A DNA stretch of 64,000 nt, counting the filler, from Folioceros fuciformis (taxonomy: Eukaryota): the NCBI GenBank assembly GCA_049999805.1. It is 15 parts of 15 records of this genome, joined end to end, with 100 filler letters (N's around TTAATTAATTAA, not from the genome) between each part and the next. Parts side by side here need not be neighbours in the genome. Positions count along the whole stretch, not along the records: positions 47,410 to 54,360 come from JBNGIO010000787.1; 14 more parts are not named here. One strand, given 5' to 3'. A program made the translations under genes and the position numbers. A model generated the notes under the pieces. The model saw nothing but the letters and a program-made list of their open reading frames with translations, ran no database searches and was not told the origin of the DNA. This document shows, piece by piece, positions 3,325 through 55,641 of the stretch (within the stretch, counting starts at the first letter, position 1; each line of letters begins with the position of its first letter).

Positions 3325-3840
3325 GCGCTACCCGCGCCTACCCAATCTGGCCGCCTGCCCGCACTGCCCCGTGTCTGCCTGCTCTACCCGATCGCTGCCC
3401 GGAAAGCTACCGTCCCACCTCCCTCCCATTTTTCCCATTTCCTTTATTATATTATTATTATTTTGCTATTTTCTGGGAGATAATTCTACAAAGTATGAAC
3501 CTTACCTACCTCACTTGGTCAACAGTTTGAACTATCCCGGGACCCCAGCATCAATTTTCCATGGCCGAGGAACCATTTTGGCTAGAAGCCGATTCTGCTG
3601 AATAAGCTGCCTATTTCAAGCTCGGTTCTAGTTGCTAATCCCACTTCTTCCCACCTCTTCCCTATCTTCTCCCACTACTCATACTCCTCCCGTGGAGGCA
3701 AGCTCAGCCACCAAGGGGGAACAGTTGCAGGGGAAGGCTTTGCGGGCAGCCATCCAGCAAGGAAGAGATGGCGTCTGCAAGAACTTTGAAGATCATGCAT
3801 TGTTCAAAGTCTTAGGGTAGTTTAAGAGGTGGTAGATACT

Positions 3841-4718
3841 TGTGGTGGTAGGGTCAGCAGGTTGTAGGGCCAGCTCATTGGCGACAAGATGTGCTAGGAA
3901 AGTCTAAATACGTGGCTGGTGACAGCCGGCTAGGCTAGTGGTCCTATTAAAATAATATTTGTCAAGTTAGAGAGAGGTGAAGTCAGAGAGAGAGAGGCTC
4001 CTAAAAGATCAGGTGAGCCTGTAGGAGGCAGGTTGTCACTTTGCGAGTTCTCTCAGGCTGTCCCTGCTTGGATACAGCTATGTGTGCCGGCTGTGCATGT
4101 GTGCAACGTCTGGTATAGCTTTGAGAAGTGGTGACCAGGGTTAAGGGCGGGGTCCCTTTTAATTCTTGATCGTGCTCTCCGTGTCGTGTCCCCATGATCA
4201 GTCATTTTCATTTCCTCGCAGGGCTGGAGTGAGTGCCAACCATGCTTGCACGGTGTCAGGTAGGATCGTGGGTGGCGACATGCTTTTCTTTGGGGTTAGT
4301 CAAGTGACTCTTGCCGGGTAGGGGGAGTCAATAGGAAAGCGTAGAAGGTAGAGGTGTCGTTGCTGGTTGCTGGTGCTGGTGCTAGAGTGAGTGAGTGAAG
4401 TGAAGTGAAGTGAAGTGAAGTGAAGTGAGGGAAGTCACAGAGGTTATGGTCGTTGTAGTGACTGGAAGGAGTTTGTGGGCACCGAGAGACGTGCACTTGA
4501 CTGATGGATAGCGAGGACTGTCCCACACTTGATCGGAGCTGGAGGGGAGCCCTCGAATCCGTCATTGAGCCGATTGAGTCCAACCCTCCATCCAGAGCAG
4601 CTAGGAACCCCATCTCTCCTTCATGGGAATGAACCCAATGTCTCAACGACAGTGGGATAAGTGTGGCCGCTAAAGGTTGAACTCGTTGGCAAATAGTGCC
4701 CGGGGTTTTGCCACCACA
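3841..4718 (+). mobile_element. LTR (probably the 3' LTR of a Ty3/gypsy element)
   Basis: 8-bp terminal inverted repeat TGTGGTGG...CCACCACA; purine-rich TTTAAGAGGTGGTAGATA just upstream; internal (GTGAA)n at about 4390-4428; its 3' end recurs inverted at 56309-56426. Confidence 0.75.
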
Positions 4719-4920
4719 GAGAGCACTATCTCCACACCCTTAAGAAGATGAGCAAAGTTCTCTGAGAGCTTCCATCGAAGTTGTTGGGCCATGGATAGCA
4801 CCACCTAGGTAGACACAGGATTGGACAATATCCATTGGTTGTCCATAATAGAGGAACTTGAGATTGTGGTCAACTAGATCCTTAGTAATTGAAAAACATA
4901 ACCTTAGTCTTTAAAGGTTC
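4719..4920 (-). mobile_element. Non-LTR retrotransposon RT C-terminal remnant (RTEX/L2-like rather than L1)
   Basis: KTKVMFFN ... KFLYYGQPMDIVQSCVYLGG across one frameshift. Confidence 0.65.
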
Positions 4921-5687
4921 TCTTCCAAATCGTTTCACTCACAAATGCGCGACAATACATCCAACTACGTTTGGAGGCCCTCAAGGGAATGAGACAAGAG
5001 GGCAATGTTACCTGACAATACCTCCAACTACTTGGAGGCCCTCAAGAGAATGCGACAAGAGAGCAATGTTTTGTGCATATACGAGAATAGCAAAGCACAC
5101 TAAGAAGAGGAGCAACCAACACCCCCAGACTTTGCAATCCAAGACTCTAGTTTATCAATATAGAATCCAAATAAGTTAAAAGATGATGAATCCCTCATTA
5201 CACTCCCATGTTGCACAGCAAATCCAAAAGGTCAAAGATACAATAGAGCAACATAGAGAGACATAGAACCCAAATAAGTTAGGAGATGATGAATCCCTTA
5301 TTACACTCCCATGTTACATAGCTAATCCAAATGGTCAAAGGCAGAATAGAGCAATAAACAACGTCTGAAATAATTTGGGTTTGTTCCTTGACCCTTCTTT
5401 CCTTTTTTTCTCCACACGGCTTTCCCTCTTCCCACCCTTCTTGATCACTTAGTTTGCCGTTTCCGAGTTGGGCTTGCTAGACACATAGTACATCGTGTGT
5501 TTAAAAGTAGACGTTTTTCGAATCTAAGATTACAGACATGCCAAGCTGATGGCATTACCGTCAAACATAAGCATGTATTACAATGATTATAGCCATTCGT
5601 GGCGCGCACATGGGCGCGCCAAAGCTCTTTCACATTTGCACTGCTACCATAGGCCACAATCTACCCTTCATGAGGTGGAGAGTCTTG

Positions 5688-7700
5688 CTACTCTGTCATG
5701 GGGACAATTCCGTCGTCGCTCATTAGCGCGTGGCCCGGTAACAAACAACGGTGTGGGTGGTCTTCTTCTACGGACATAGATGATGGGTTGGACGTAAAAG
5801 TCTCTAGTTGCTCAGGGTCCCAGGTCTCATCATCGGAGTGCCGCGGCGCTGGCTTTCCCAAATCCTCTACAGGTGCATTATTAGACTTCCTTCCCCTTCC
5901 TTTCATATTCGTCTTTGCATGCCCTTGCATTTGATTGAGTTCTCTAAGGTCCATTGGTGCAATCATCCCTTCAACCATTTGCATTACGTGTGCCTTTGGT
6001 TTCACCAACCTTCCACTAGAAAGCTCTCGAGCAAAAAACAGTGAATGCCCTCGTGCGCGAGGTTTTGTCATCAATTCTTTCACATCGGATGGAAATACTT
6101 CATGCCCCGTGATTCTTTGCTTGACCATCTTCATCAAGTAGAGAAGGGTTCACCTAGCGCGCCCCAGTGCACGCCCATCACATGCAATGGCACATTCGTG
6201 TCCGAATACTTACAATGTGATTGAAAACAGGTTGAAACTTTGCATTGTCTTAAGGCGTCGAGTACTTTGGATACTCTAGCTCAACTTCGACAAAGGAACC
6301 GCATCGTAAACCTGAACAAAACACAGTCTGAATGATGTTCAATTTTTTGGCTTTTCATCTTGCTCATCGTCAACTCCCCTTGAACGACTTTCTCTAGCTC
6401 GGACATCATGATCCGATCCCCTGCCTCTCCTGGAGGCATACCATGAAACACCCTTCATGTAGAAGCGTGCATTGGTTTTATTATAAGGTTCGGGTCTCTG
6501 ATTGCTGGCTCAGCAATCGTATTCCCTCTCATCGTTTTCCCCCGTTTGCTCGTGTAGGGTTATTAACGCCCAATTTGCTTAGACTAATGTGTTTAGTCTA
6601 AGATTAGTGTCTAATTAAGTATCATTAGTTTAGATTAGCTTAAGTTAATCAGTAGGAAGCTTCTTGCACAGCTTCCTGTGCGCTTCTTGTGAAGCTTCTT
6701 AGGGAGCTCTTTTAGAGGGTATAAATACCCCCTTAAGCTCCCTTACTAGAGAGACTCTATTGTGAGAGTTTGTCCTCTCTTTTCTCCTCCTCTTTGTCTC
6801 TCCTCCTTTACCATGTAGCTCCTTCTAGCGATCCTACAGCTCGCCTAGGGGCGCGCCTATGCAAGAACATCTTCATTCCAATGGCTGGGCCAGTGCCCCT
6901 GCATTGTCGATGTCGCCCTCCTTGGGACATTGCCTGCTGCTGGACAAGCACCCTTGTAATGCAAAACTTGAGTCAAAAGCTCACCTTGTTCGTTGCCAAC
7001 GCGTTTTCAAAGCCAGTTCGCAAGTCCGCATTGTTGAATCGGCAAGGTATCACCTTGTCGGCAGACAACGTAAGGAGATGATGTACATTGGACTTGCACT
7101 GAAAGAACTTTTGCTTCATAAGACAAATTAGCACTTTCACTCTTACTTGGGCCCAAACCTTGTACTTCCATACCCAAAGGATGTAACCCACAACGGTTTT
7201 TTGGGTCTTGGAAGCATTGAGGTAGCCATTCACCCAAAGAAACGGGATGGGATCAAAGTTGGGCAAGGTGTAATCAGCCCCTTCTTTGTGGACACACCAT
7301 TCCTTGTCCGAGAGATCCTGATCAGGCAAGGCAACATATATGTCTTGCAATGCCTTTTTCTCTTTCCTTGTGAATGGGTTTTCCAAGTCCATTCCTAGTT
7401 CAACACCTAGCTCCTCCAGGAAGATTGTCATCGGGTGCATCTCCAAGGCTGCCCCACTTAGAGTTTCCTATCCCCTGCTCTCGTACCGGCCCTTGCTCCT
7501 AGAAACAAGCATAAAGCTTCCTTCCCTCGTTGACAAAGTCTTCTTGTGCCCAACTTCCGTGTCTTTTGATACTCTTTTCGGTTTGGACTTTCCCATACCG
7601 CTTTCTTGTTGTAGTTAGGACTCCTGTGCAATCCTCCTTTTCTCAGAGCTCTTGGCCTTACCTTTGGGGTCCACTCTCTTTCCGCTTTTCACCTGCGGGC
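5688..7700 (-). pseudogene. Unknown intron-containing gene remnant (probably TE-borne), interrupted by a solo LTR
   Basis: ORFs 6973-7446 and 5688-6137; short GT-AG introns at 7099-7146 and about 6934/6940-6984; no recognisable family. Confidence 0.45.
6553..6838 (+). mobile_element. Solo LTR of a copia family with 5-bp TSD GCTCG
   Basis: TGTAGGG...CCTACA flanked by GCTCG at 6548-6552 and 6839-6843; TATAAATA box; homologous to 36473-36693 and 55656-56044. Confidence 0.93.
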
Positions 7701-8474
7701 ACCGCCTGAACATCAACAACATCGGCGTTCTTGGCTCGAACTTGGCTTGTTGACTGTAACATTTTTGGAGAGAACAATGGCAACCATGATTTCAGAAGGT
7801 AGTTCAGTATCCATATCTCATATCCATCCAAAAACATCACAATTAGGCGTATCTAAGAAAGTTTCCAAACCTGCTATTTCGGTCTCTACCCAATGAAGAA
7901 AAGAAAATCCTAAAGGCATGAATTACCTACTAAGTTGCCCGCACAGATACCATGATATGGTCAACCCTATATGAAATCATCGCTAGTTGCAAGCAATCCA
8001 GCATGGACCACGTCAAAATTTGATTGTTAGCTATCACATGATTCTGGTACACTTCACTGCGCTGCTCCTTGAAACCACAAAAAAGAACCGAGCTCTTACC
8101 CGGATGAGAGCGTGCTTAGCGATAGTGATTATCCGGATATGCCCAACGACAGATACTCATCACATGTGTAGACGCCCAAGGAAGGCCAGCTCCTATAGGT
8201 TTCTTAATCGTGACCAGCACTTGCAGGTTGCTTAATTAAACACAATCAAGAGCACAGCGGCCAGCAACAGCAAGGAACCTGAAGCAATGATGACAGGAAG
8301 TGCTCGCGATAGCAGAAGAGCAAGCGCGAGATCGGATGAGCTAAAAGACCTCGTCGTGCGTCACAAAAGGCCCTAAACGAGAGTGCACCTTGCCTCCTTC
8401 CTTGCTGATCCTTTGCTTTGCGACTATGCTGACCTGCCGCCACTGACCCGATTCACCCGCCCAACGCTATAGCT

Positions 8475-8985
8475 CATGAGCGTTTTGGCGCTGCCTAGTG
8501 CTGTGGCTCAGGAGCGTTTCGGCGCTGCCTCGTGTTGTGGCTCAGGAGCGTTTCGGCGCTGCCTACCTAAAATCCGCGGTGGCTCAGGAGCGTTTCGGCG
8601 CTGCCTACCTAAAATCCGCGGTGGCTCAGGAGCGTTTCGGCGCTGCCTGCCTAAAACCCGCGGTGGCTCCGGAGCGTTTCGACGCTATCTGCCTAAACCT
8701 TGCGGTGGCTCTAGAGCGTTTCGGCGCCACTTGCCTAGAACCCGCCGTGGCTCCAGAGCATTTCAGCGCTGCCTGCCTAAAACCCGCCCTGGCTCCGGAG
8801 CGTTTCGGCGCTGCCTGCCTGAAACCCGCCGAGGCTCCGGAGCGTTTCGGCGCTGCCTGTCTAAAACCCGCCGTGGCTCCGGAGCGTTTCGGCACTGCCT
8901 GCCTAAAACCCGCCGTGGCTCCGGAGCGTTTCGGCACTGCCTGCCTAAAACCCGTCGAGGCTCCGAAAGCGTTTCGCTGCTGCCA
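8475..8985. repeat. 42-bp GC-rich tandem array, about 12 copies
   Basis: Unit GGCTCCGGAGCGTTTCGGCGCTGCCTGCCTAAAACCCGCCGT; runs into the contig end. Confidence 0.95.
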
Positions 8986-9229
8986 NNNNNNNNNNNNNNN
9001 NNNNNNNNNNNNNNNNNNNNNNNNNNNNNTTAATTAATTAANNNNNNNNNNNNNNNNNNNNNNNNNNNNNNNNNNNNNNNNNNNNTTTTGAGCCCTACCT
9101 ACCTATGACTCCCCAACTTTCATGCTCAACAATATGAGAAGGCTTACCTACCACCAACCCGAGGAAAGAAGCACTTCTACGGCACTTGCTCCTTTGTTGT
9201 ACACCACGCTAGGCACCATCCTATACAGG

Positions 9230-39807: not shown

Positions 39808-42006
39808 TCAACTTATAATACACTCGCGCAGACGCACATAGCTACTACCTTCATCAGAAGAGTCATCGTCCTCGTAGTTGTTAAGTTCCTCATCCCTATC
39901 ACCCTCATATTCCATTCCAGAGTAACTCCGTTGTTCCATGTCACTTTGTGCTTGCCGGCGCTGAAGGCGTAAGACATGCATTATCACATCTGGTGTCAGG
40001 TGGAGGTGACCCAGGTCGTCCCTCCGACGTCTGTTTACCTCCATCACCTGCAGAGCGAATGCAGCGATAAATAGTACTATCACGCAACCAACCACTTCCT
40101 TCGTTATACAGGAACAGATTTCCAGCACACAGCCCCTACAAACCAGTATCAACTCAGCCACAAGGAAACAAGACCCTACCCGTTCTGCATCTGCGGGAAG
40201 TGACTGTATCTCTTCAGCAATAGGAGCCCACACTTTCACATGTTTCTCAACCCCACTTGTGGCAAGAATGGTAGCATAAGGATGAGGTTCCAGGCAGTTA
40301 ACCACGTTACTATCACCTCGCATCATCCGGACCAGATGTCCTCCCCTCTTCTTCCAAATGTAGATATGACCACAGTCAGAACCACTGATAACATACTCTG
40401 TATTCGGACCAAAGAAGTTCACACCTTTCACTGTTTTGTAGTTCCGATGGCCTTTGTACACTTGGGGAGCAGGTTTCTCCGGCTCGTTTCTTTTCTCCTC
40501 TGATGAAGGCTTTGGATTTGGTCCCAAGCCCATATCTTTGTCAAACAGGTATATTAGCTCATCATTATAAGAGACCAGGAGCTCCTCTTGCAAAGAGTAC
40601 GCCACACATGTGATGGTAAACGCTCCCGCACGGGCTCCAACTAAATGAGCTGGAGCAAACACGTCAACTGGCTTGTCTTGAGAACTAGTTGCATCGACAT
40701 CCACTCTACGGATGTCATATACCCTGGCATACTCATCTGATCCCCCGACAGAAAAATAGTTAGGATTTCGTGGATTGATTACTATTGCATTCAGGCGGAC
40801 AGTACTATTTTGCCTGCTGAGCTTCGAAGGATGAATAGGGTGGCAGGTGAACAGCTTTGTAGTTTTGCTCTCCCGTAGATCATACTGGAAACCCACAGCA
40901 AGATCAGCAAAGGCAAGCCGACACAAGGTCATGTAAGGAAATCAAGTCAATCAAACATTCCATTGCTCATCGAGAAGAAAGCAGAAACATTCAGGACGCA
41001 CACAAACACCTCATACAGGGGAGTACAACTCGATGTAACTGCATGCATCTTCCATCCTCTTTACCAACCATAGCCTTCCTTCTTGTCATGTACATAAAAC
41101 AGTTGCAACAGATATCCCACACGCCACGTCAAGAATCCCAAGCTACCGACCATCATGATCTAGAGACTGTGCCTAAAGGCGCTGTCAGATATTTGCCCGT
41201 GCACAATATTCATATTACAATGAAAGTTCCAGTAGACAGCAAAACTCTTGTCCTTCATCAGCAGGGATCATGTGGCTGACAGACCCACTACTAACCCATC
41301 AAACTGAGCCAAACTTACATGTTGCACGACTCCATCCTCCCCACAACTGAAGAAAGTGCGAGGACTTCCAGGCTCTATAGCCAACTTGTGAGCACGCTCC
41401 CTGTGCTTCGCCAGTTTCTTGGTTGCTATCTTCCCGTTCTCCAAAATTTCGGCGTGACGAACCTTGCAATGGTAACGCCAAACACATTTGCCTCGTAAGC
41501 AAGATGGTACTAGTACTGTAGGACCTAGTGAGAAAAACCACAAATCTTGACCAGTACCTGGCCATCTGCACCACAGCTGATGACATGTCTATCGTCCGAG
41601 AATGGCATGATTCTGGCCTGAAAGACATTGCTTTCATGGCCTGAGTCATAGTGAAGTCTCTTCGACCTTGCAGCCCAATCCCAAAACACAATGTCCCTAT
41701 CATCCGATCCTGACACTAGCAAGTCGCCGTTCGGACTGAAGTGCACGGTATTTACACATCCCTCATGATACTCCAGGTTAGCAAACTGGTCGAGGCGCTG
41801 AATAAGATCCTGCATCACCAAGGCCAACCTTAGGTTTTAGCAAATCAGCTGAAAAGCCGGAGAAAAACGCCTCCTGAAATTCATTGTTCCTTCTTCCTTA
41901 CCAGACAGCCTCCAATTTTACGCGAAAATGCTTCAGGTCGAAGGTCTCCAATCTGGCGTCGCCATATCTCCTCTTGGCCACTTTGGTATAGCACGGATTT
42001 ACGCAT
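39808..42006 (-). CDS. DCAF8: WD40 protein, DDB1- and CUL4-associated factor 8-like, multi-exon
   Basis: HEGCVNTVHFS, LVSGSDD, GHESNVFQARIMPF, SCGEDGVVQH, SYNDELIYLF, YKGHRNYKTVKGVNFFGP, SGSDCGHIYIWKK and VVNCLEPHP. Confidence 0.9.
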
Positions 42007-45000: not shown

Positions 45001-46262
45001 GCATCATCCAAGTTGTATCGTATCGATTCACAAGGTTCTCTGCAAGTTGGGGTATGTCATGGTACAGTAGTTGGACCAGCGCACACCACACTAGTATGTA
45101 CTGCCTTTTCTGTCAACTTGGTCAGCAGGTTTGCTGCCAGGTAACCAGAGACATGTACAGCATCCGATTCGTTTGGCCTGAGGTTACGTGAGTCCTCCAA
45201 ACTCCCTCCACGGCAGCCGTCATGCTGCCTCTCCCAAATGATCAGCACTTTGCAAGTAGATACATACATGTACCCAGAAACAGCATCATGTGGCTAAGGA
45301 AACGTGAATCTTCCGAACTCCACCCAACACTGAAGTGATGCCTCATCTGCAAAGTGGTCAGCAGTTTGCTACTCACCACACCACGATCGTTGGCATGAAC
45401 GTATTTATGTAAGTGAATCTTTTCTCCTCTGCAGGTTCCGACTGTTTTATCTACAATCCAGTTTGTTTCAAGCAAAGCTCTGTGAGCAGAAGAAGGACAA
45501 CCAGTTCGTGAGATCCCATTGGACAGCCACCCTGTTTCCTACCCCTCGTATCGGATCGTTGCGCAGCCATACATACTCCTTCCGCAGAAAGGAGGTCTGT
45601 ACTGTACAGGGTTTCAGTTCCAAAGTTAGGCCAGATTCCACAATGTGGGGAGGCCATGTCGAGCGAACTTCATATCTTCCAAGGCACAAAATTTCCATAC
45701 AAAGGGTGGTCCAAGTTGTACATGGCAAGATACATACGTCAGAAGACGCAGTACGTGACATCCTTGTTAGCTTTTTTGCAAGAGCACGTGGAAGGCATGT
45801 CGGAGATATTCCGTGTGCATACATAGAGTATGCAGCTGCTAACATGGTGACCCCTTTTGTAATGCCATGCTGTTTTAGAGCACACAGTGAACCGAGTTAT
45901 ACACGCAGAAGATGTGCGAAGCATCGCATGCTGGTCACCAGGCCAGGAGAGGCTCGACTCATGCCTCGTGAAAGCCACTTTTTATCAACAACTTGGCTCC
46001 TAAACTTTGAAAAAGAAGAAGGTATTTTTCTGCCCAAAAAAGAAAAGAAAAACCTCTTCAAGCATACGGACCCTGCTAAGTGGCGTGAGTTCGATTCCTA
46101 CAGAACACTGCACCCTATGTTCATCTTATCAGAATAATGATGTTATTCCAATCATCCTAGAGGGTATTCCTTTCTTCGTGTGGTCATGGGGTATTAGTGG
46201 ATCCACTTCCCACGTAGTCTTCCTATGCTCCTCAAGAAGGTCATGACCTATATCGACTCTGA

Positions 46263-46452
46263 GCGGACGCCGTCCAGGTCGCGGCAGAACAACAACATAC
46301 AAAGACTCCTGCGCGGACGCCGTCCAGGTCGCGGCAGAAAACAACAACATACAAAGACTCCTGCGCGGACGCCGTCCAGGTCGCGGCAGAAAACAACAAC
46401 ATACAAAGGCTCCTGCGCGGACGCCGTCCAGGTCGTGGCAGAAAACAACAAA
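46263..46452. repeat. 52-bp tandem repeat, about 3.6 copies
   Basis: GCGGACGCCGTCCAGGTCGCGGCAGAAAACAACAACATACAAAGACTCCTGC. Confidence 0.9.
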
Positions 46453-47309: not shown

Positions 47310-47959
47310 NNNNNNNNNNNNNNNNNNNNNNNNNNNNNNNNNNNNNNNNNNNNTTAATTAATTAANNNNNNNNNNNNNNNNNNNNNNNNNNNNNNNNNNN
47401 NNNNNNNNNTATACTCCTGTGCCAAGAACCCCTGTCACTGCCTAACCAGGTCAGCACGCCTCAGACAGAACCCTCCACTCGTCAAAACTCGAAACCTAAC
47501 TCCGACCTTATCCTAAACCTAACTCTGACCTAACCCGACTCTAACCTAACCTGACCCCGACTTATGGCCCTGGTTGCTCTTATCAAAATTAAACAAACAT
47601 CTCCAAACTTCCAAAACTCACGAGTGCCTTTCGACACCCTCTTCCCCTCTCCGATCCTCTCCTTCCCCTAAGATCATCTGCAATCCTTCAGAGACCCACC
47701 ATCTTCAGACCCTCCAGTCTGTTGGACGGGCAAGGATAGAGGGGTGCATAGGCAACAAGGTGATAATGTCTCCCCTGCGGACCACATTGAGCACGGCTCA
47801 ACGTAATGCAGCCCTTTCAGACTTCACATCACCCACCTCCATCCTTCTCGCCTCCTGCCTATTAGAGAAACACACACATTTTTCCACCTCTGCCTCCCTA
47901 TCCACCTTCCATTCCCCTGGCCAGTCGGTCACCCCGGACAGCCTTAGCTCAAGCAACCG

Positions 47960-50940
47960 CAGCTAACCTGCCATGCGCCCACAAGCCGGCCTCCTACCAC
48001 CTCCTTCCAGATCCGGCTAGCCATACGACACTCTCCTAGCCGATTAGCCCATGCTGCCTGTCCACCACGATCCAGGCCAACCTGCCTGAATCCTGCCATC
48101 CTGCACTGCCAACCCCTGCTCGGGATCCTGCAACCAGGCCACCGCCCGGTTTCCAAATTCGGCCCCGGCCTGCCATGCCCGGAGTGTCCTACCGGCCAGG
48201 ATCTGGCCAAGCCTAGCTCACCCCGCCAGGCCTGCAGATCGATCCTGCCCACCTCCTAGATTTGCAAGGCTGCCTGGCCGAGCTGTGCTGCCTACTCCTT
48301 AATGAGCTCCTGCTGGGCAGCCCAGATCCAGCCACTTGCAGCCGCTGCAGCCCCTGTCTGGCCCAGCCTCAACCAGCCGACCGGCCCTACTAGCCCGACA
48401 ACCGGCTGCTATTGGCCCGGCCATCCTTCAGGCCGCCTGCCGGCCGGCTTGGCCTCCTGGATCTGGCCAGGCACCCAGCCCACAGGATCACCTGCTGCCT
48501 GCTCGAAGCTGGGGCGGGCTGGGCTGCTGGCTAGACCCCTCAGCTGCCACCTCCAGCCAGCAGACTCTCCCAGCCAGATCTCAACCGCCAGCCAGCCTAC
48601 AGTTGGATCATGCCGAGGCCCGCCTGGCCTAGATCCGCCAGCCTCTAGCTATTTGCCTACTGTGCTGGGTCGCCGGCCAGCTACCTACCGCTACCCACGT
48701 TGCTGGACCGCCTGCAGCTCCCTGGCGACCCGACCTTCAGCAGGCACGCCTTGCTTGATCTGCTCCAGCCTGCCTCAACCCGCCGGAGCGGCCTGCCTCC
48801 GACTGGGGCCTCCCTGGCCAGCTAGCCCCTACTAGCCGGCCACCTGCGAGGCCTGGCTGTTCCTCACCTTGTAGGCAACCCATAAGCTTGGCGGCCTGTG
48901 CAGCCCGCCATACCACTCGCCAGGCCGCCTGCCCGGATCCACCTAGCCCGTCGGCCTGCTGGATCCCACCTTGCACTGCAGCCCGATCTGCTAGGCTGAC
49001 CGCTGCCTGCGCTGCTGAGCCGCCTGCCTTCCTCAGCGGTCGTGCCAGCTGCCGCAGCCCCCTCCTTGCCGATTCGCCCAGGCCGCCCACCTGCTTGGCC
49101 TGTGCTGGGCTGGACCAGCCGCCGCCAGCCTACAAACCCCCTGCAGCTTCCTGGCGACCTGAATCGGCCAACCAACCTGCTGCGTTCCGATCTGCCCCTG
49201 CAGCCGGCCAGCGGCCACCCAACTAGAGCCTCACCTACTAGCCAACCCACCGTCACCTGGTGATCCAGCAAGGCGCCTTCTTATCAGAACGCACCTAGCC
49301 AGTCACTAGCCATCATGGCCTGACTCCTGGATCTGGCACTGCCGCAGCCTCGGAACGCCCTGCCGGCCAGAATCCGGCCTATCTTGGTTCCAAGCCTGGC
49401 CTGCCCAGCCAGATCCGCCTGTCATGCACCCTGCCGGCCGCCTGCCATGCAGGATTGTCGAACTGCCGCCTGCAACCCGATCAGCTGGCTGGCCGGCTTA
49501 GCTTCTACTGCCCAGCTCAAGTCCACCCAGGCCAGCTCCTGCAAGCCAGGCGGCCTACATGCTAGCAGCCCGACCTAGTTCGTTCCAGCATCATCCGTAG
49601 CCCACCTGGTGACAGCGCCTACTTGCAGCCTGAATCAACTTGAGGCCCGCCTAGCCTGGACCCGCCTGCAAGGCCGCCTCCAGCCGGCTAGGCTCTCCCT
49701 CCGGCCAAGCTCTCCCGGCCTCCTGCTTCGCTCAGGGCTGAGTAGCCTGCCAGCCGCTTGGGATCCTGCAGCCGCAGGGAGATGGGTCTCCGCAGTTGCT
49801 CCCACTCAGTCCCTGCCCGATCACTCCCGCCCCTGCTGCTCAGCTCTACCCCCCGCTCAGCTCCGGCAGCAGGCCAAAAACCCTGCACATCCGTGCCTAG
49901 TCGTCCCTGAGCTGGGCTCTGATCCTGACGCACCGATCATGCAACTAGCCCCATCCACGCCGGCCAGGATTCGGTGTCTCCTCTAGCCTACCCGCGTTGG
50001 TGCCCCATCTAGCAGCTGCCTGCCAAGTCGGTCAGGCAGCCAGCCACCAGCCTGCCTAGCCTGCTGCGGCCTCGCCTAGATCCACCCCGTCTGCCAGGCC
50101 GCCTGTCGATACAGCCTCTTGGCTGGCTAGATCCAATCGCCCCCCGCCTGATTGATTCACCCAGACCGCCTGCCTGGCCCGACCTGCCGATCCGACACCA
50201 CCGCCCTGCTCCTAGCCGTGACCAGCCAGGTCGCCCAGCCAAGCCGCCTGCCTGCTGCTTGGCCGGCCTGCTAACCTCCAGATCCAGCCCCAGCTGTCAG
50301 CAAGCCGGGCGACTGCCTGGCTAAAACAACTAGCCAGGCAACGAAACAACTAGCCAGGCCGTTGCCTGGCTTCGGGATCCCCCAACCAGCCTGCTGGGTT
50401 TGTCTGCCAGCCAGCAGGTCTTCCACTCGGCTGCTGCTGGCTCGGCCGACCAGCCGCCAGCAAGCCGGGCTAGATGTCCCCCCCACAGCAGGTGCTGATC
50501 CGGCTCCCGTTGTGTTGTTGTTGCCTGGTCAGGTTTGGCGCTTGCAGCGGGTACTTGCCTGCCTGCAGCCGGACAGGGCTGCCAGCCGCCGTCTCGGGCT
50601 GGCTGCTTCGTGCCCAGCCAGCCCTTGTCTAGCCCATCCTCGACCAGCCAGCCCGTCTGCTGGCTGGCTAGATTTGGCTGCCTTGCCACCACAACCCAGC
50701 CTGCCTTGAGCCACCCTACGGTCACCCGGCATGTTGAATCTTGCCTGGGCTTGCAGCCACCGATCCGTCCGCCCGTCAGGATCCATCCTAGCAGCAGGCC
50801 GGCCCGCCTACCGGCCAGGATCCTCAGCCCCGGCCACCCGGCCGTAGGCAAGCCTAGGCACCCTACCTCCATGCCTATGCCCCGGCCACCCGGCCGTAGG
50901 CAAGCCTAGGCACCCTACCTCCATGCCTATGCCCAACCGC
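47960..50940. repeat. About 3-kb GC-rich low-complexity block ending in a 52-bp tandem duplication (50827-50934)
   Basis: Dense GCCAGCC, CCTGCC and GATCC words; the overlapping ORFs on both strands carry no motifs. Confidence 0.7.
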
Positions 50941-51277
50941 CTTCCACACTCTCCTGAGGCCCCAACTCACCCTCACACGCCCGACTTAGGGTTCCACACA
51001 CACCGGCGTCCCTCTCTACGGGCACATCCTACCCCCTAGTAGGCTTCACATTTTCCACGGCCATGAGTTAGCTAGACGATTGTTGTCTTTTTGCACCACC
51101 ACTATCTCCTGATCATCCTATTTAATCTAGCCTTATCTAACATAGTTTCCTAATTACCTCTCCAAGGAATTCTATCAAAACCCCAAAAAAAACAAATACC
51201 ACCCATTTTCTAAGAGGCCTATCTACCATGTGGTCTCCACAATGATCAACCCCCTCTTCAAATTGTGGCTCATTGCC

Positions 51278-51336
51278 AGAAATTCTAGAGGCCAAGCTGA
51301 GGGCTCGGCGCCCTCAGCCTGGCCTCTAGGATTTCT
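51278..51336. other. Long inverted repeat (27-bp arms, 2 mismatches, 5-nt loop)
   Basis: AGAAATTCTAGAGGCCAAGCTGAGGGC-TCGGC-GCCCTCAGCCTGGCCTCTAGGATTTCT. Confidence 0.9.
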
Positions 51337-51361
51337 AACTGGACAATGGCGCAAGGGGGTT

Positions 51362-52194
51362 TATATTCATGTTCTCGTGGACAAGGACTTGCAAGAAGGG
51401 ATGTTCACCTTCGCAATCCCTGGAGCTGATACTCAAGTACAGTATCAGGTGGTGAGCATGAGTGTTATGGAGATGAAAGGATTTCTCTAACCAAGGAAAT
51501 ACTCCCTCCTCGTTATGGATGTGCTAGGAGGCTATGACATGGGCCCTATGGACAAGCGTTTTGATGAGCCGATGATAAGCACAATGTTGGAAAGTTTTGT
51601 TAAGAAGACGATATGTGAAGAATATTGATTGGTAGTTATGCATGGAGTGGAGGATGCCCATACAGTAAGACATGCCCTCTGGAAATGGTGTCGGGCCGGA
51701 GGCGGGACATCGTTTGTCTGGGACAAGGCAAACGTGTCCAACGACAAGGGCGGATCTGAGACTTTGGAGTACATCACAGTGGCTTGGGGTGCCTAGGAGG
51801 GCAGTGGAAAAGATAGAGTATTCATGCTTCATGGAGTATCCCGTCCACCATTCAACAGAGGGAGGTTTGTCATAGTCTATGACTCGGTTGTGAAGAAGCA
51901 GATCTATCTGTTGCACGACAAATGTGTGGTATGCCCGTATCAACGCCCACTGGGTCTTATGATGAAACTTGTGCTCGGTTTCTCGAGGGAAGAGATTAGG
52001 TGGTGGATACTTGCTCTAGCAGCGGGACCACGACACTTGCAGAGCTGCTGTCGGGGAGGAATTGCATCGCAGTTGAGGCGGACTTGAGATGCGCGGCTTA
52101 CATACCTCAATGAATCAATGGCCACGAGGTTCTGCATAATACGGAAGAGGAACTAACGTTCGATGTGCATCGCAGGGGCCCGTTGCAATTCTAG
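51362..52194 (+). pseudogene. Beta-class amino (N4-cytosine/N6-adenine) DNA methyltransferase, decayed
   Basis: Manual read-through gives YSLLVMDVLGGY (motif IV-like, 51500-51535), FVWDKANV, ETLEYITVAW, CPYQRPLGLMMKLVLGFSRE, then after a 1-nt frameshift at about 51992 D*VVDTCSSSGTTTLAELLSGRNCIAVEAD (motifs X-I-II). Confidence 0.8.
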
Positions 52195-52799
52195 GCGAGG
52201 GAAATTTGTATAAACAATACAAACAGCTTGAAAGCCCAAGTTGTGCCTTTGAATCGGCGAAGCGCTCCAAGCGCTCAGTACGGCCAGTGAAGGAGGTTAG
52301 ACGATGGAGGAGGCGGTTTGGCCAGCACTGCAAGCACCCGATGAGGCGAAGGAAGATGGAGATTTTGTGTATAAGGAGTTGGAAGAGATTGACAACGTCG
52401 ACACAGAAGACCAACAAAGGTTTGCAGGAGTTGCTGTAGTGTATGACTCTCTGTCTGCAAAAGAGGGGTCTTAGAGTTTATAAGTACAAGTGTTTTCGTG
52501 CCGATTGGGCCTAGTGTGATGCTACAATAAAACAATCAATGAGTAAATAGTGCTGGTGAGCCTGACGCCTTGACCATCACTCGGTGTGTCGGCGTCATGT
52601 CACAGTGGACATCTGAGAAAAGGTTGGTGTGCGCAAGGTGGTGGCTCTTTTCGCATAAGTCTATATAGCTCATTCTGGAAGGGTTAAGAAATAGGACATC
52701 ATACTTCACTTCATGTACAAGTGTCCTTCATTATTCAGCCCCTTCCAGCTTTGTCGTGTTCAGGCTAGGCATGTGGCCTATTGGATGGAAATTCATAAG

Positions 52800-53760
52800 C
52801 AACGTTGTCTAAACCTATAGAAATGATAACTTGTGAATATGGGATCTTCGTAGCTTTAACGACTAAGTATTCTATTATTTGTTCTAACTTGCTATTTTTC
52901 ACAAAGCATGCCTTCTTGCATTCCTGATGATACAAGAAGTGTACGTGAACTATGGCCATCTTGACCTGCATGAGGAATTGCTCTCACTGCTTTTGACCAC
53001 ATATAAATAATTCTTCGCCATTATTACTGGAAGTAGGTGATGAATGTAGGGTACACACTCTCATATTGAGTATACAAGGATTCGAGTTTCTCTCTTGCTA
53101 CTGCCTCGGGAATGAGTGAACACTTTTCCATATACATTATCTCTCCCAATTGCTGTATGATGTCTGATCTTGTTGTTGCATTTTTACCTTATGTAGGAGA
53201 TTTCTCAACCATGCTCTTCCACATGCTAAAGGCACAAGAAGACTAACATGTTTGGACCAAAAGTCTGCTTGATTGCATTTATTTCTACTTGGCAGTCGTT
53301 CACAAAAAATGCAGTTGGTTGTCACATGGGAGACACCTCATGTGCCTTATCTCGCAACACTTGCCATCTTGCTATACTTGTTGTATCGGCATCTCTACAT
53401 ATCACCCAAGAAATGGGCAAGCCATTCATGTGGTCATCAAACACCTAGAGACTAATAAGCTGAAACTGCCATTTATTGAGACCAAACGACGCATCCGCAG
53501 CCACAGCAGAGTTATGACCCCACTTTACCAACATTTCTAGCATAAACGGTGTTTGCACACCAAGAATGAAAGTATTTGCAATATGAGGAAGAGGTTTGTA
53601 ATGTCTATATAGGGTAGAAAACTAAGTTAGTGTGAAGGTCTATCCATATACGCACACTATCTGCATCTTGCACATGAAGTTCATAGGTTCGAGACTTCAC
53701 TTTTGTCTCCATATTCTAAACATCCCTCAGACTCAAATAATCATCCCTTGTAAACTTGTA
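52800..53760 (-). mobile_element. Mutator-like (MULE) transposase, decayed
   Basis: RDDYLSLRDV, DADSVRIW, FILGVQT, GHNSAVAADASFGLNK, VFDDHMNGLPISW, PTAFFVNDCQVEINAI, VFLCL*HV/RAWLRNL and FITYF..W..IPHAGQD; stops, frameshifts and a deletion. Confidence 0.85.
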
Positions 53761-54020
53761 GGTTGAATCTACTCATCGTTTGGCATGAACTTTCTCTTTG
53801 TGATCAACAATGATTTGCATCTTTGTCAATTTACACAACAATCCTTGCCTCCACCCCCTCTAACTCCCCCTCTAGCAATCCTTGCCTCCATTCCATCTAA
53901 CTCGCACTAGCAATTGATGATCCTCACAGTGTGCAAATAAACTTTGCAGAGCAAGGGAAAATAAACTTCTCAAATTTCTCATCCCCCCATCCATGGCTTT
54001 TTCACACTCAGTTACATCTA

Positions 54021-54360
54021 GGTAATGCTCTAAACTTTTGTTTACATGGACTCAGGTAATGCTCCTACACTCTATTCACATGGACACGAAAGCTCTAAAC
54101 TTTGTTTACATGGACTCCGGGTAATGCTCCTAGACTCTATTCACATGGACACGAAAGCTCTAAACTTTGTTTACATGGACTCTGGGTAATGCTCCTAGAC
54201 TCTATTCACATGGACACGAAAGCTCTAAACTTTGTTTACATGGATTCCGGGTAATGCTCCTAGACTCTATTCACATGGACATGAAAGCTCTAAACTTTGT
54301 TTACATGGACTCCGGGTAATGCTCCTAGACTCTATTCACATGGACACGAAAGCTCTAAAC
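54021..54360. repeat. 65-bp tandem repeat, about 5 copies, to the contig end
   Basis: GTAATGCTCCTAGACTCTATTCACATGGACACGAAAGCTCTAAACTTTGTTTACATGGACTCCGG. Confidence 0.92.
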
Positions 54361-54460
54361 NNNNNNNNNNNNNNNNNNNNNNNNNNNNNNNNNNNNNNNN
54401 NNNNTTAATTAATTAANNNNNNNNNNNNNNNNNNNNNNNNNNNNNNNNNNNNNNNNNNNN

Positions 54461-55061
54461 CATTGGAACCTTTCGAAGGTTCCATGTTCTTCCTGTTCAC
54501 CTCCTCTATTATTAGGCTACCTTCTACATTTACAACGGTGAGACCACTGGCAGGAGCGGGATTACTCAGAGCGGTACGAAAGGTGTCCCAGCTCTCTGGT
54601 AATGTGACCAACACAAACATAGCTCTCACGTAATATGGGAACGAGATACCTTGAGCTGAGAACTGGCTGGAAATGGTATTGAACTCATTCAGATGATCGG
54701 ACATCCTCATCCCTTCCTTCATCTTCAAGTCCACCAGCTGTTTCAACCAGTACACCTGAGAAGCCGCACTTTGCTTCTCATACAGGTCACACAACTTCTG
54801 CCATAGCTCGTAACTTGTGGTCTTGTCTTTCACATTGAAGTAGACCGACTTCAACAATGTTAGCATGATGGTATACCTAGCAAGCTCATCTAGATCCTGC
54901 CACTCATCCTGAGTCATGCTAACGGGTTTCACTCCTAGCAACTTTATCGGCTTGATCTGCTTCTTTTGCACTAGAACATTGTAGACTTGTTCTTTATAGA
55001 ACGGGAAGTTAGTACCATCTAACTTCTTTATGTTGAACATGACGTTTTCTGAGGACGCCAT
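54461..55061 (-). CDS. Ty1/copia gag (open, truncated by the gap)
   Basis: KLDGTNFPFYKEQV, ELWQKLCDLYE, LKMKEG..MSDHLNEFN and LVTLPESWD. Confidence 0.93.
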
Positions 55062-55641
55062 ATTTCAAAATCGATACAAATCAAGTAAAAAGGCTAGTTT
55101 GAAAACGATCGAAAATGTAATATAGATTCTAAAAGTTACCCTCACGACTGTCCACAATTTAGGCCGACACGATGGGCCCAAGTCCGATTCTGGCCCTCTT
55201 TGCGTTCCAAGATTAACTCGACCGTCTGCGGCCGGAATTCGGTCGCTCCCAACTGAATTCGCCCACGCCCACATCCTAACCTATTGCGCACGACACCCAC
55301 GTTCACGACTAGTGCCGGCGGCGCCCACGGTGTCCGAGCCCGCTGTGCCCATGGCAGTGCCCCCGCGGTTTGGCGCCTTCCACCCGCGCTTGCTGCGGCG
55401 CTCCGGTGCGCCCACATCGCATGCGCCCGCGGCCTGGCACGCACAGGGCCTCGCGATGCCGCTATCACTGCCACAGCCTCAGCAAGGCACGGCTGGAGCC
55501 TCCTGCACTCCGGGCAGCAGGTGGCCTCAAACGGCCACCGGGATTCTGCCTTCACTCCGGAGCCTTCCTCATGCCTTGGTGCACCTCGTCCACAGCACCT
55601 GCCATCACCCTCTGCTCCACAGTCCTAGCTCCACAACCTGC

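Follow-up and report, generated by a model that had tools for sequence, protein, structure and literature searches.

A 64-kb stretch of DNA from the Folioceros fuciformis genome assembly GCA_049999805.1 (64,000 nucleotides, here called the window, along which all positions are counted) was found to contain the remains of a gene for a DNA amino-methyltransferase. The remains lie on the plus strand at 51419-52158, on a contig of 6,951 bases (JBNGIO010000787.1) that occupies positions 47410-54360. They are read, with a probability of about 85%, as a dead, intron-free relic of a beta-class gene, i.e., of the circularly permuted PF01555 type, from a small divergent clade. Judged by its sequence, the relic is a pseudogene unable to function as a methyltransferase. 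A preliminary description of this DNA had proposed a decayed gene of the beta-class N6_N4_Mtase type, and this proposal is supported by a profile of the family, by the PF01555 matches of the relatives, and by the order of the motifs.

In the translation with stops read through, the relic is distributed over two frames. Frame A can be read from 51146 and contains YSLLVMDVLGGY, FVWDKAN, EYITVAW, and CPYQRPLGLMMKLVLGFSREE; frame B, located one base back, reads D-stop-VVDTCSSSGTTTLAELLSGRNCIAVEAD. The frame through the stops at 51488, 51626, and 51794, together with the peptides named in the preliminary description, was found in the translation in full. The damage identified in the translation and in the alignment to the family profile amounts to five in-frame stops and one frameshift. 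The parts of the relic are as follows.

51419-51994, plus strand: frame A, first two thirds, with the motif IV block, the W-x-K-x-N block, PYQRP, and three stops; profile positions 56-247 of 374
51488-51490, plus strand: in-frame TAA at a family Glu position (translation, alignment)
51518-51535, plus strand: motif IV equivalent DVLGGY, aligned with D-L-P-R-G-L / D-I-P-Y-G-F (family) and D-P-P-Y/F (PF01555 proteins outside it)
51626-51628, plus strand: in-frame TGA at a family-invariant Arg, R87 (translation, alignment)
51719-51733, plus strand: W-D-K-A-N block, with W192, K194, and N196 invariant in the family
51794-51796, plus strand: in-frame TAG of frame A (translation, alignment)
51935-51949, plus strand: PYQRP, equivalent to YQKP of the family and TQKP of other PF01555 proteins (alignments)
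51973-52158, plus strand: frame B, last third, with the motif I region for binding of S-adenosylmethionine (AdoMet), the following helix, and two stops; profile positions 241-302
51985-51999, plus strand: frameshift zone where the frame moves back by one base, with a TAG (51997-51999) at a family Trp (overlap of the profile matches)
52006-52029, plus strand: motif I DTCSSSGT, in the family D-x-C-S-G-S-G, with the first Gly of G-x-G changed to Ser in the relic
52111-52113, plus strand: TGA at an Arg invariant across 20 PF01555 proteins (R254), a premature end within a conserved stretch

The two TGA stops at 51626 and 52111 are consistent with decay from CGA to TGA at methylated CpG.

The homology of the relic was shown with a profile of nine family sequences, which was compared with the six frames of the window with the filters switched off. 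One match was obtained at 51419-51994 (E-value (E) 6.7e-35, 109.3 bits) and a second one at 51973-52158 (E 2.6e-13, 38.2 bits), and no match beyond these two was present in any of the six frames over the whole 64 kb. The matches overlap at 51973-51994 in different frames, and thus both the homology and a one-base frameshift are confirmed, the latter in agreement with the single lost base that had been proposed before. Since the matches are collinear over the domain, no introns interrupt the methyltransferase part, and the relic is intron-free across it in the family-profile alignment. The family alignment, collinear over the whole domain, contains 14 invariant columns, among them the motif IV Asp and the W-x-K-x-N block. 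The profile alignment showed no homology to the family further upstream than about 51340-51419, the place of a high-copy repeat.

When the read-through with X at the stops was compared by phmmer with 1.84 billion representative proteins, seven proteins were identified at E <= 0.001, with values from 6.6e-13 to 5.4e-4. In a word-index protein search with the same kind of read-through, none of 93 candidates scored. Longer or fused forms were not identified at E <= 0.001 among 8,000 scored candidates of 782-2230 residues, which is a weak negative; a known member of 1,825 residues from Chara was missed too. No Rfam family reached its gathering score anywhere in the window. A quick tree (LG+G4, 30 rows), for which the program warned of long branches, placed eight family rows and the relic in a single clade with a support of 99 in the Shimodaira-Hasegawa-like approximate likelihood ratio test (SH-aLRT). 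Here, the relic sits with the relatives P0005, P0003, and P0004 (SH-aLRT 84), and its end branch has a length of 1.27 compared to 0.49-0.76 for these three.

For the relatives, PF01555 was identified as the top and the sole above-threshold Pfam family in 6 of 7 proteins, which passed its gathering cut-off of 26.7 bits with 27.3-50.1 bits; the seventh is truncated, with 229 residues. A profile search of 5.8 billion proteins retrieved five family members at E 5.7e-153 to 4.8e-90 and, after a wide gap, 21 other proteins at E 7e-8 to 7.9e-4. PF01555 is annotated on all 26 of these matches, and restriction-type domains are fused to it in many of the 21. Against PDB sequences, the family profile gave 12 matches, 11 of which are beta-class amino-methyltransferases, in the order CcrM (E 8.2e-10), TTHA0409, M.RsrI, M.MboIIA, M.BceJIV, M1.HpyAVI, and N4CMT.

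A comparison to known structures was made with an AlphaFold model of P0005 (predicted local distance difference test, pLDDT, 77.6; predicted template modelling score, pTM, 0.80). In a Foldseek search, this model matched CcrM best (8.7e-14), followed by M.MboIIA, M.BceJIV, M1.HpyAVI, and M.RsrI (to 3e-11), and then by N4CMT (3.7e-10) and M.PvuII (1.4e-9), with METTL3 ranking far lower at about 4e-8. The likeness to M.RsrI and M.PvuII that had been suggested as a check was thereby obtained for the modelled relative, and the family is predicted to have a class I methyltransferase fold like that of CcrM and M.RsrI, as modelled on P0005 rather than on the relic.

Phage and bacterial enzymes were identified as the nearest relatives outside the family. 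The DNA-methyltransferase families of PHROG match it at E 1e-18 to 1e-22, and a tblastn search with P0009 returned 210 phage records, all 210 below 60% identity, with about 25% identity over 54-61% of the query for the 10 that were listed. A language-model search for look-alikes returned PF01555 clusters only, mostly viral (Uroviricota) or bacterial. In a cluster look-up, the relatives were found to be mostly single sequences from Logan assemblies, with ENA and JGI sequences among them, and one JGI relative carries the label 'DNA modification methylase'.

The Chara braunii protein GBG86584.1 (P0008) has 1,825 residues and contains the same arrangement twice in tandem, namely a conserved N-terminal region plus a PF01555 domain. 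The units are separated by Ala/Pro-rich and acidic low-complexity sequence, and unit 1 is without an intact motif I region. Part of the Chara N-terminal region is shared by P0011, as identified in the profile search. Acidic tails of a eukaryote-like kind are a feature of the family, along with a long N-terminal extension in some members. The family is sparse, with eight clusters among 1.84-5.8 billion proteins. A single-protein scan of JGI metagenome contigs and scans of IMG/VR with two family members revealed no relative, by methods which find close relatives only. Literature searches returned no paper on this PF01555 clade or on the Chara accession. The family is a small, divergent, and apparently undescribed clade, intact in Chara braunii and in other public assemblies.

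Two other assignments were considered for the family and rejected. A ParB-like N-terminal domain had been suggested for the Chara protein by a G-G-G-H-x-R-E-A stretch, judged by eye. No ParB family of Pfam matched at E <= 1, BLASTP against a ParBc-PF01555 protein aligned the methyltransferase part only, and a single-sequence fold of 245 residues was unusable (pLDDT 39.9). For MT-A70, PF05063 was faintly matched in one of the seven relatives only (E 0.032, 14.6 bits compared to a cut-off of 23.9), and the METTL3 structures ranked below all PF01555 enzymes.

The alignments revealed that the motifs of the preliminary description had been assigned correctly: the block equivalent to DPPY, W-x-K-x-N, PYQRP, and SSSGTT as motif I. 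YSLLVMDVLGGY is aligned with the DPPY block. The order in the relic, with DVLGGY (51518) before SSSGT (52006), is the permuted one, as aligned with 19 other PF01555 proteins. Both motifs are damaged: D-V-L-G departs from the pattern (D/S/N)-P-P-(Y/F/W) of motif IV, and C-S-S-S-G-T departs from a glycine loop of the F-x-G-x-G type.

Within the family, D-L-P-R-G-L was identified in P0003, P0004, and P0005, and also in P0006 and P0011, D-I-P-Y-G-F in P0007, P0016, and P0009, and D-F-P-Y-G-F and D-L-P-Y-G-F in the two Chara units. In a 20-protein alignment, the other PF01555 proteins have D/S-P-P-Y/F, except for P0030, which is gapped, and P0034, which is divergent. Motif I occurs in the family as C-S-G-S-G, C-C-G-T-G, or F-A-G-S-G, and D-x-C-S-G-S-G is aligned with D-P-F-x-G-S-G of the others. 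The view of motif IV in the preliminary description, with DVLGGY perhaps from DVPGGY, is corrected in one respect: the ancestral motif of the closest relatives is D-L-P-R-G-L, and therefore the final Y of DVLGGY is not the catalytic aromatic residue. The Arg in place of an aromatic residue suggests that catalysis may be altered or lost in the branch nearest to the relic.

As a rule of thumb, a motif IV with a leading Asp rather than Ser leans to adenine N6. Because motif IV of the family starts with Asp, adenine N6 would be a likelier target of the intact members than cytosine N4. For the relic, the preliminary description held that N4-methylcytosine (4mC) and N6-methyladenine (6mA) cannot be told apart, and this view is shared here.

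Among the known systems closest to the family are the N6-adenine enzymes of the beta class. The permuted motif order and, in the P0005 model, the fold are shared with CcrM, M.RsrI, M.MboIIA, M.BceJIV, and M1.HpyAVI; the family profile matches sequences of such enzymes at E 8.2e-10 to 1.8e-6, and W-x-K, Q-K-P, and D-x-x-x-G-x-G blocks are common to both. However, the identity is 14-20%, motif IV reads D-[L/I/F]-P-Y-G-F or D-L-P-R-G-L where those enzymes have D-P-P-Y/F, acidic tails and in some members N-terminal extensions are present in the family, and the copy in the window is a pseudogene. The best profile-library scores of the family were obtained with phage methyltransferases (phrog_67 and phrog_498; the group also includes adenine-specific enzymes of Streptococcus and Mycobacterium phages), from which the family is set apart as a separate clade in the quick tree.

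In Marchantia polymorpha, MpDN4MT1a and MpDN4MT1b have been described as sperm 4mC methyltransferases, with TSPPY characteristic of 4mC enzymes (10.1101/2021.02.12.428880). They share with the relic the occurrence of a prokaryotic-type beta-class amino-methyltransferase in a streptophyte genome. By the TSPPY of the same description, the family and the relic are set apart from MpDN4MT1, since their motif IV begins with Asp and is without the first Pro. No protein with a Marchantia name was present among the phmmer or profile-search matches, most of which are without a name.

In bdelloid rotifers, N4CMT has been described as a horizontally acquired PF01555 enzyme with a C-terminal chromodomain, recruited by a eukaryote (PMC8885841). 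N4CMT is matched by the P0005 model, as given above, and by the family profile at E 2.5e-6, and in both the fold and the sequence searches it ranks under the N6-adenine enzymes. Unlike N4CMT, none of the seven relatives contains a chromodomain (Pfam, E <= 1).

A PF01555 accessory gene carried by transposons has been described for red algae, in Plavaka and Mutator elements. This gene, PAG2, is outlined in the source as PF01555 fused to a SET domain, inside Plavaka, Mutator, and Zisupton elements (10.1101/2025.02.11.637652). A PF01555 relic with the remains of a Mutator-like element (MULE) 1 kb off would resemble that arrangement, by analogy rather than by shown kinship. Compared with PAG2 by that outline, the family differs in that a SET domain is present in no relative and in no search match.

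The surroundings of the relic have to be read contig by contig. Fourteen linkers of the form N44-TTAATTAATTAA-N44 (within 3225-62956, e.g., 47310-47409 and 54361-54460) join 15 contigs of 1.0-10.9 kb, and therefore features across a linker give the relic no genomic context. The term 'plant TE-rich contig' (TE, transposable element) in the preliminary description thus over-reads the context: the window is made of 15 joined contigs, and only 47410-54360 is the relic's own. Apart from the relic, the features below were identified.

47410-47641, relic contig: high-copy repeat, unrelated to the second one (contig depth)
50890-51353, no strand assigned: high-copy repeat abutting the 5' side of the relic; summed contig depth 300-1075 compared to 13-34 over the relic (runs X1 and X2, see below)
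53220-53501, minus strand: decayed core of a MULE/FAR1-like transposase, about 1 kb from the relic and convergent with it; PF10551 at E 3.6e-4, 21.4 bits compared to a cut-off of 27.6
6214-6475, minus strand: frameshifted trace of the N-terminal extension domain of P0011 and Chara P0008, on the contig 3325-8985; tblastn with P0011, two pieces, E 1.5e-7

The MULE fragment lies below the PF10551 cut-off and was read with X at the stops; a ZSWIM RNaseH-like match was obtained at E 0.016. The trace at 6214-6475 was also found by profile (independent E-value 3.9e-5), and no methyltransferase part was identified beside it in the family-profile scan. On its contig, Pfam matched nothing in five frames, with the plus strand covered only to 8400. 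At 8473-9033, both strands are open with a repeated unit of about 16 residues (e.g., GSGAFRRCLPKTRG), which corresponds to a tandem DNA repeat with a period of about 48 bases that continues to the contig end.

For the relic contig, a content of guanine plus cytosine (GC) of 0.545 was determined, compared to 0.38-0.50 in the other 14 contigs, while the GC at 52-54 kb is 0.433 and like that of the remainder of the window. A stretch of 3.4 kb at 47416-50775 has 57-66% GC and could be a non-coding transcript or moderately repeated DNA; a six-frame scan of 47410-51146 gave no Pfam match. An inverted repeat of 27 bases with a 5-base loop and 93% complementarity is located at 51278-51336, just upstream of the relic in locus-specific sequence. 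At 54027-54360, a 65-base satellite (5.1 copies, 96% match) reaches the contig end. On the contig preceding that of the relic, a 52-base tandem repeat (3.8 copies, 95% match) was identified at 46255-46451. Two other contigs contain a WD40-repeat frame at 39808-40941 (minus strand), whose nearest protein clusters are streptophyte, and a Copia-type gag at 54405-55064 (minus strand; PF14223, E 1.3e-30). On the basis of these two frames, the assembly as a whole is taken as that of the plant.

Public sequencing runs were compared with the window, of which X1, X2, and X3 are runs of one sample, and X4 comes from another study under the same species label and is guessed to be RNA. The word shares of X1 and X2 with the stretch are 0.89 and 0.85, and both contain exact contigs over the relic at a depth of about 10-30. 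These two runs may be the source of the assembly itself and, hence, no independent support. Near both high-copy repeats, the depth is 10-30, and the unique contigs begin at 51214 (X1, X2).

For X3, the differences from the window consist almost entirely of C>T, at 24 places, and of G>A, at 44. Over the relic (51528-52171), all 14 of the listed C>T sites are CHH, and one contig at 51949-52082 has 12 differences where the reference contains 12 CHH, 7 CG, and 6 CHG cytosines. X3 looks like a converted library (bisulfite or enzyme) in which CG and CHG would be methylated and CHH would not, as is usual in plant heterochromatin. The apparent retention of C at CG and CHG and its loss at CHH are a good hint, short of proof, of silencing and against contamination. 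A CG plus CHG pattern is tied to plant chromomethylases. X4 is exact over 47416-50775, with one contig of 1,598 bases, 0 differences, and a depth of 47-116, and contains nothing of 51122-54137. No RNA run was found among the listed holders of the relic.

From these data, the following picture is proposed. The intact members of the family would bind AdoMet via the C-terminal D-x-C/F-x-G-S/T-G loop, a flipped base would be offered to the N-terminal D-[L/I/F]-P-Y-G-F pocket, and its exocyclic amino group is predicted to be methylated. The copy in the window is incapable of this, with D-V-L-G in the pocket, S-S-S-G in the loop, and its 5' part replaced by or buried under the high-copy repeat. It is apparently methylated at CG and CHG, like plant heterochromatin. 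The gene may have arrived, by what is taken as the likeliest route, as cargo of a DNA transposon or of another mobile element, ultimately from a phage or a bacterium, so that the family would be mobile and horizontally acquired, as the preliminary description had supposed. The cargo route is inferred because of the MULE relic 1 kb off and the second family fragment on another contig, and is offered tentatively, at somewhat less than even odds.

Several observations weigh against parts of this interpretation. For the assignment of the relic, the frame A piece alone matched no Pfam family, and the frame B piece alone matched PF01555 at positions 183-213 with E 0.2 and 12 bits, below the gathering cut-off. 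The PF01555 assignment of the relic therefore rests on the intact relatives, by transitive homology. The top PDB sequence match of the C-terminal piece alone is an rRNA adenine dimethyltransferase (Dim1, E 0.31), and the placement of the relic in the tree comes from the quick search with its long-branch warning. For the cargo route, the relic is low-copy in X1 and X2 and, hence, not within a recently amplified element; no flanking inverted or direct/terminal repeats were found around the relic and the MULE fragment; closeness to a transposon carries little weight where a genome is rich in repeats; and the searches gave no link to the red-algal accessory gene, with a SET domain in none of the matches. 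For the contig, the reading of X3 is limited by a library type that is off the record, by consensus contigs, and by differences listed in part, and no listed public contig spans the high-copy repeat which joins the GC-rich left half to the right half with the relic.

The best surviving alternative is that of an old streptophyte gene, inherited vertically, which stayed intact in Chara and some lineages, decayed in this plant, and was never transposon cargo. In favour of this, the only member named by organism comes from a gene model in the nuclear genome of Chara braunii, the relic is low-copy, terminal repeats were not found around it, and long open frames, with acidic tails of a eukaryote-like kind, are retained in the intact members. 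However, a family of eight clusters is sparse for such a gene, the Chara gene model contains two tandem units, a second decayed fragment is present on another contig of the window, the relic is intron-free over the domain and has a MULE relic 1 kb off, and the nearest relatives outside the family are phage and bacterial enzymes. A host gene of this kind is regarded as possible, although rather unlikely.

The absence of introns, the strong PHROG matches, and the mostly viral (Uroviricota) or bacterial PF01555 clusters in the look-alike search would also fit an integrated large DNA virus, or a virophage-like element, with a DNA methyltransferase of its own. Yet the enzymes matched belong to bacteriophages, with an identity of about 25%, and not to eukaryotic viruses, the contig showed no further viral gene in any of its frames, and the IMG/VR scans with two members, which find close relatives only, gave none; such an origin is considered very improbable.

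A similarly small chance is given to the view that the contig or its right half is foreign (from an alga, a fungus, or another eukaryote), or that it is an assembly chimera. Such a view is suggested by an unplaced contig of 6,951 bases with a deviating GC content, by the presence of the relic part only in runs of one sample, by X4, which contains 47416-50775 and nothing of 51122-54137, and by the joining of the two halves at a high-copy repeat. On the other hand, cytosines over the relic are retained in X3 at CG and CHG but lost at CHH, which is the pattern of plant heterochromatin, the GC of 52-54 kb is like that of the window, a MULE/FAR1-like relic is located on the same contig, a second family fragment is present on another one, and a live bacterial contaminant is excluded by the multiple stops.

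A chance resemblance, or an RNA or protein methyltransferase or MT-A70 instead of a PF01555 DNA enzyme, is rejected: the window pieces score below the Pfam threshold, the C-terminal piece alone is as Dim1-like as PF01555-like, and one relative has the faint MT-A70 match, but both family-profile matches of the relic are strong (E 6.7e-35 and 2.6e-13), PF01555 is the top family in 6 of 7 relatives, CcrM and M.RsrI rank above METTL3 by five to six orders of magnitude in the fold search of the P0005 model, and motif IV precedes motif I.

A broader reading, which is speculative and taken as a whole improbable, would build on the decayed PF01555-type gene and its family. It would hold that a phage or bacterial amino-methyltransferase was recruited into eukaryotes, here into a streptophyte, for a third independent time after N4CMT and DN4MT1, and that the family moves as DNA-transposon cargo, as PAG2 does in red algae. 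In the same reading, the family would still be intact in Chara and several other organisms, and perhaps in this plant too. The D-[I/L/F]-P-Y-G-F form would write 6mA (or 4mC), and the D-L-P-R-G-L form, with Arg for the base-stacking aromatic residue, would have taken on a new role as a protein that binds AdoMet or DNA.

DNA methylation in plants is generally attributed to enzymes of the MET1, CMT, and DRM/DNMT3 types. The sperm 4mC enzyme of Marchantia showed that prokaryote-type amino-methyltransferases can join this set. For annotation, the case teaches that unplaced, linker-joined contigs may hide relics of this kind and that their context should be read contig by contig. The relic itself is inert and of modest interest, and the family which it reveals is the part worth following. 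It leads to a small, apparently undescribed group of PF01555 proteins whose catalytic motif is unusual, with intact members in a charophyte and in other public assemblies. If the D-L-P-R-G-L branch is inactive, a methyltransferase fold would have been turned to another use; if the intact members are active, they would be candidates for enzymes that place 6mA or 4mC on the DNA of streptophytes or of the transposons within it.

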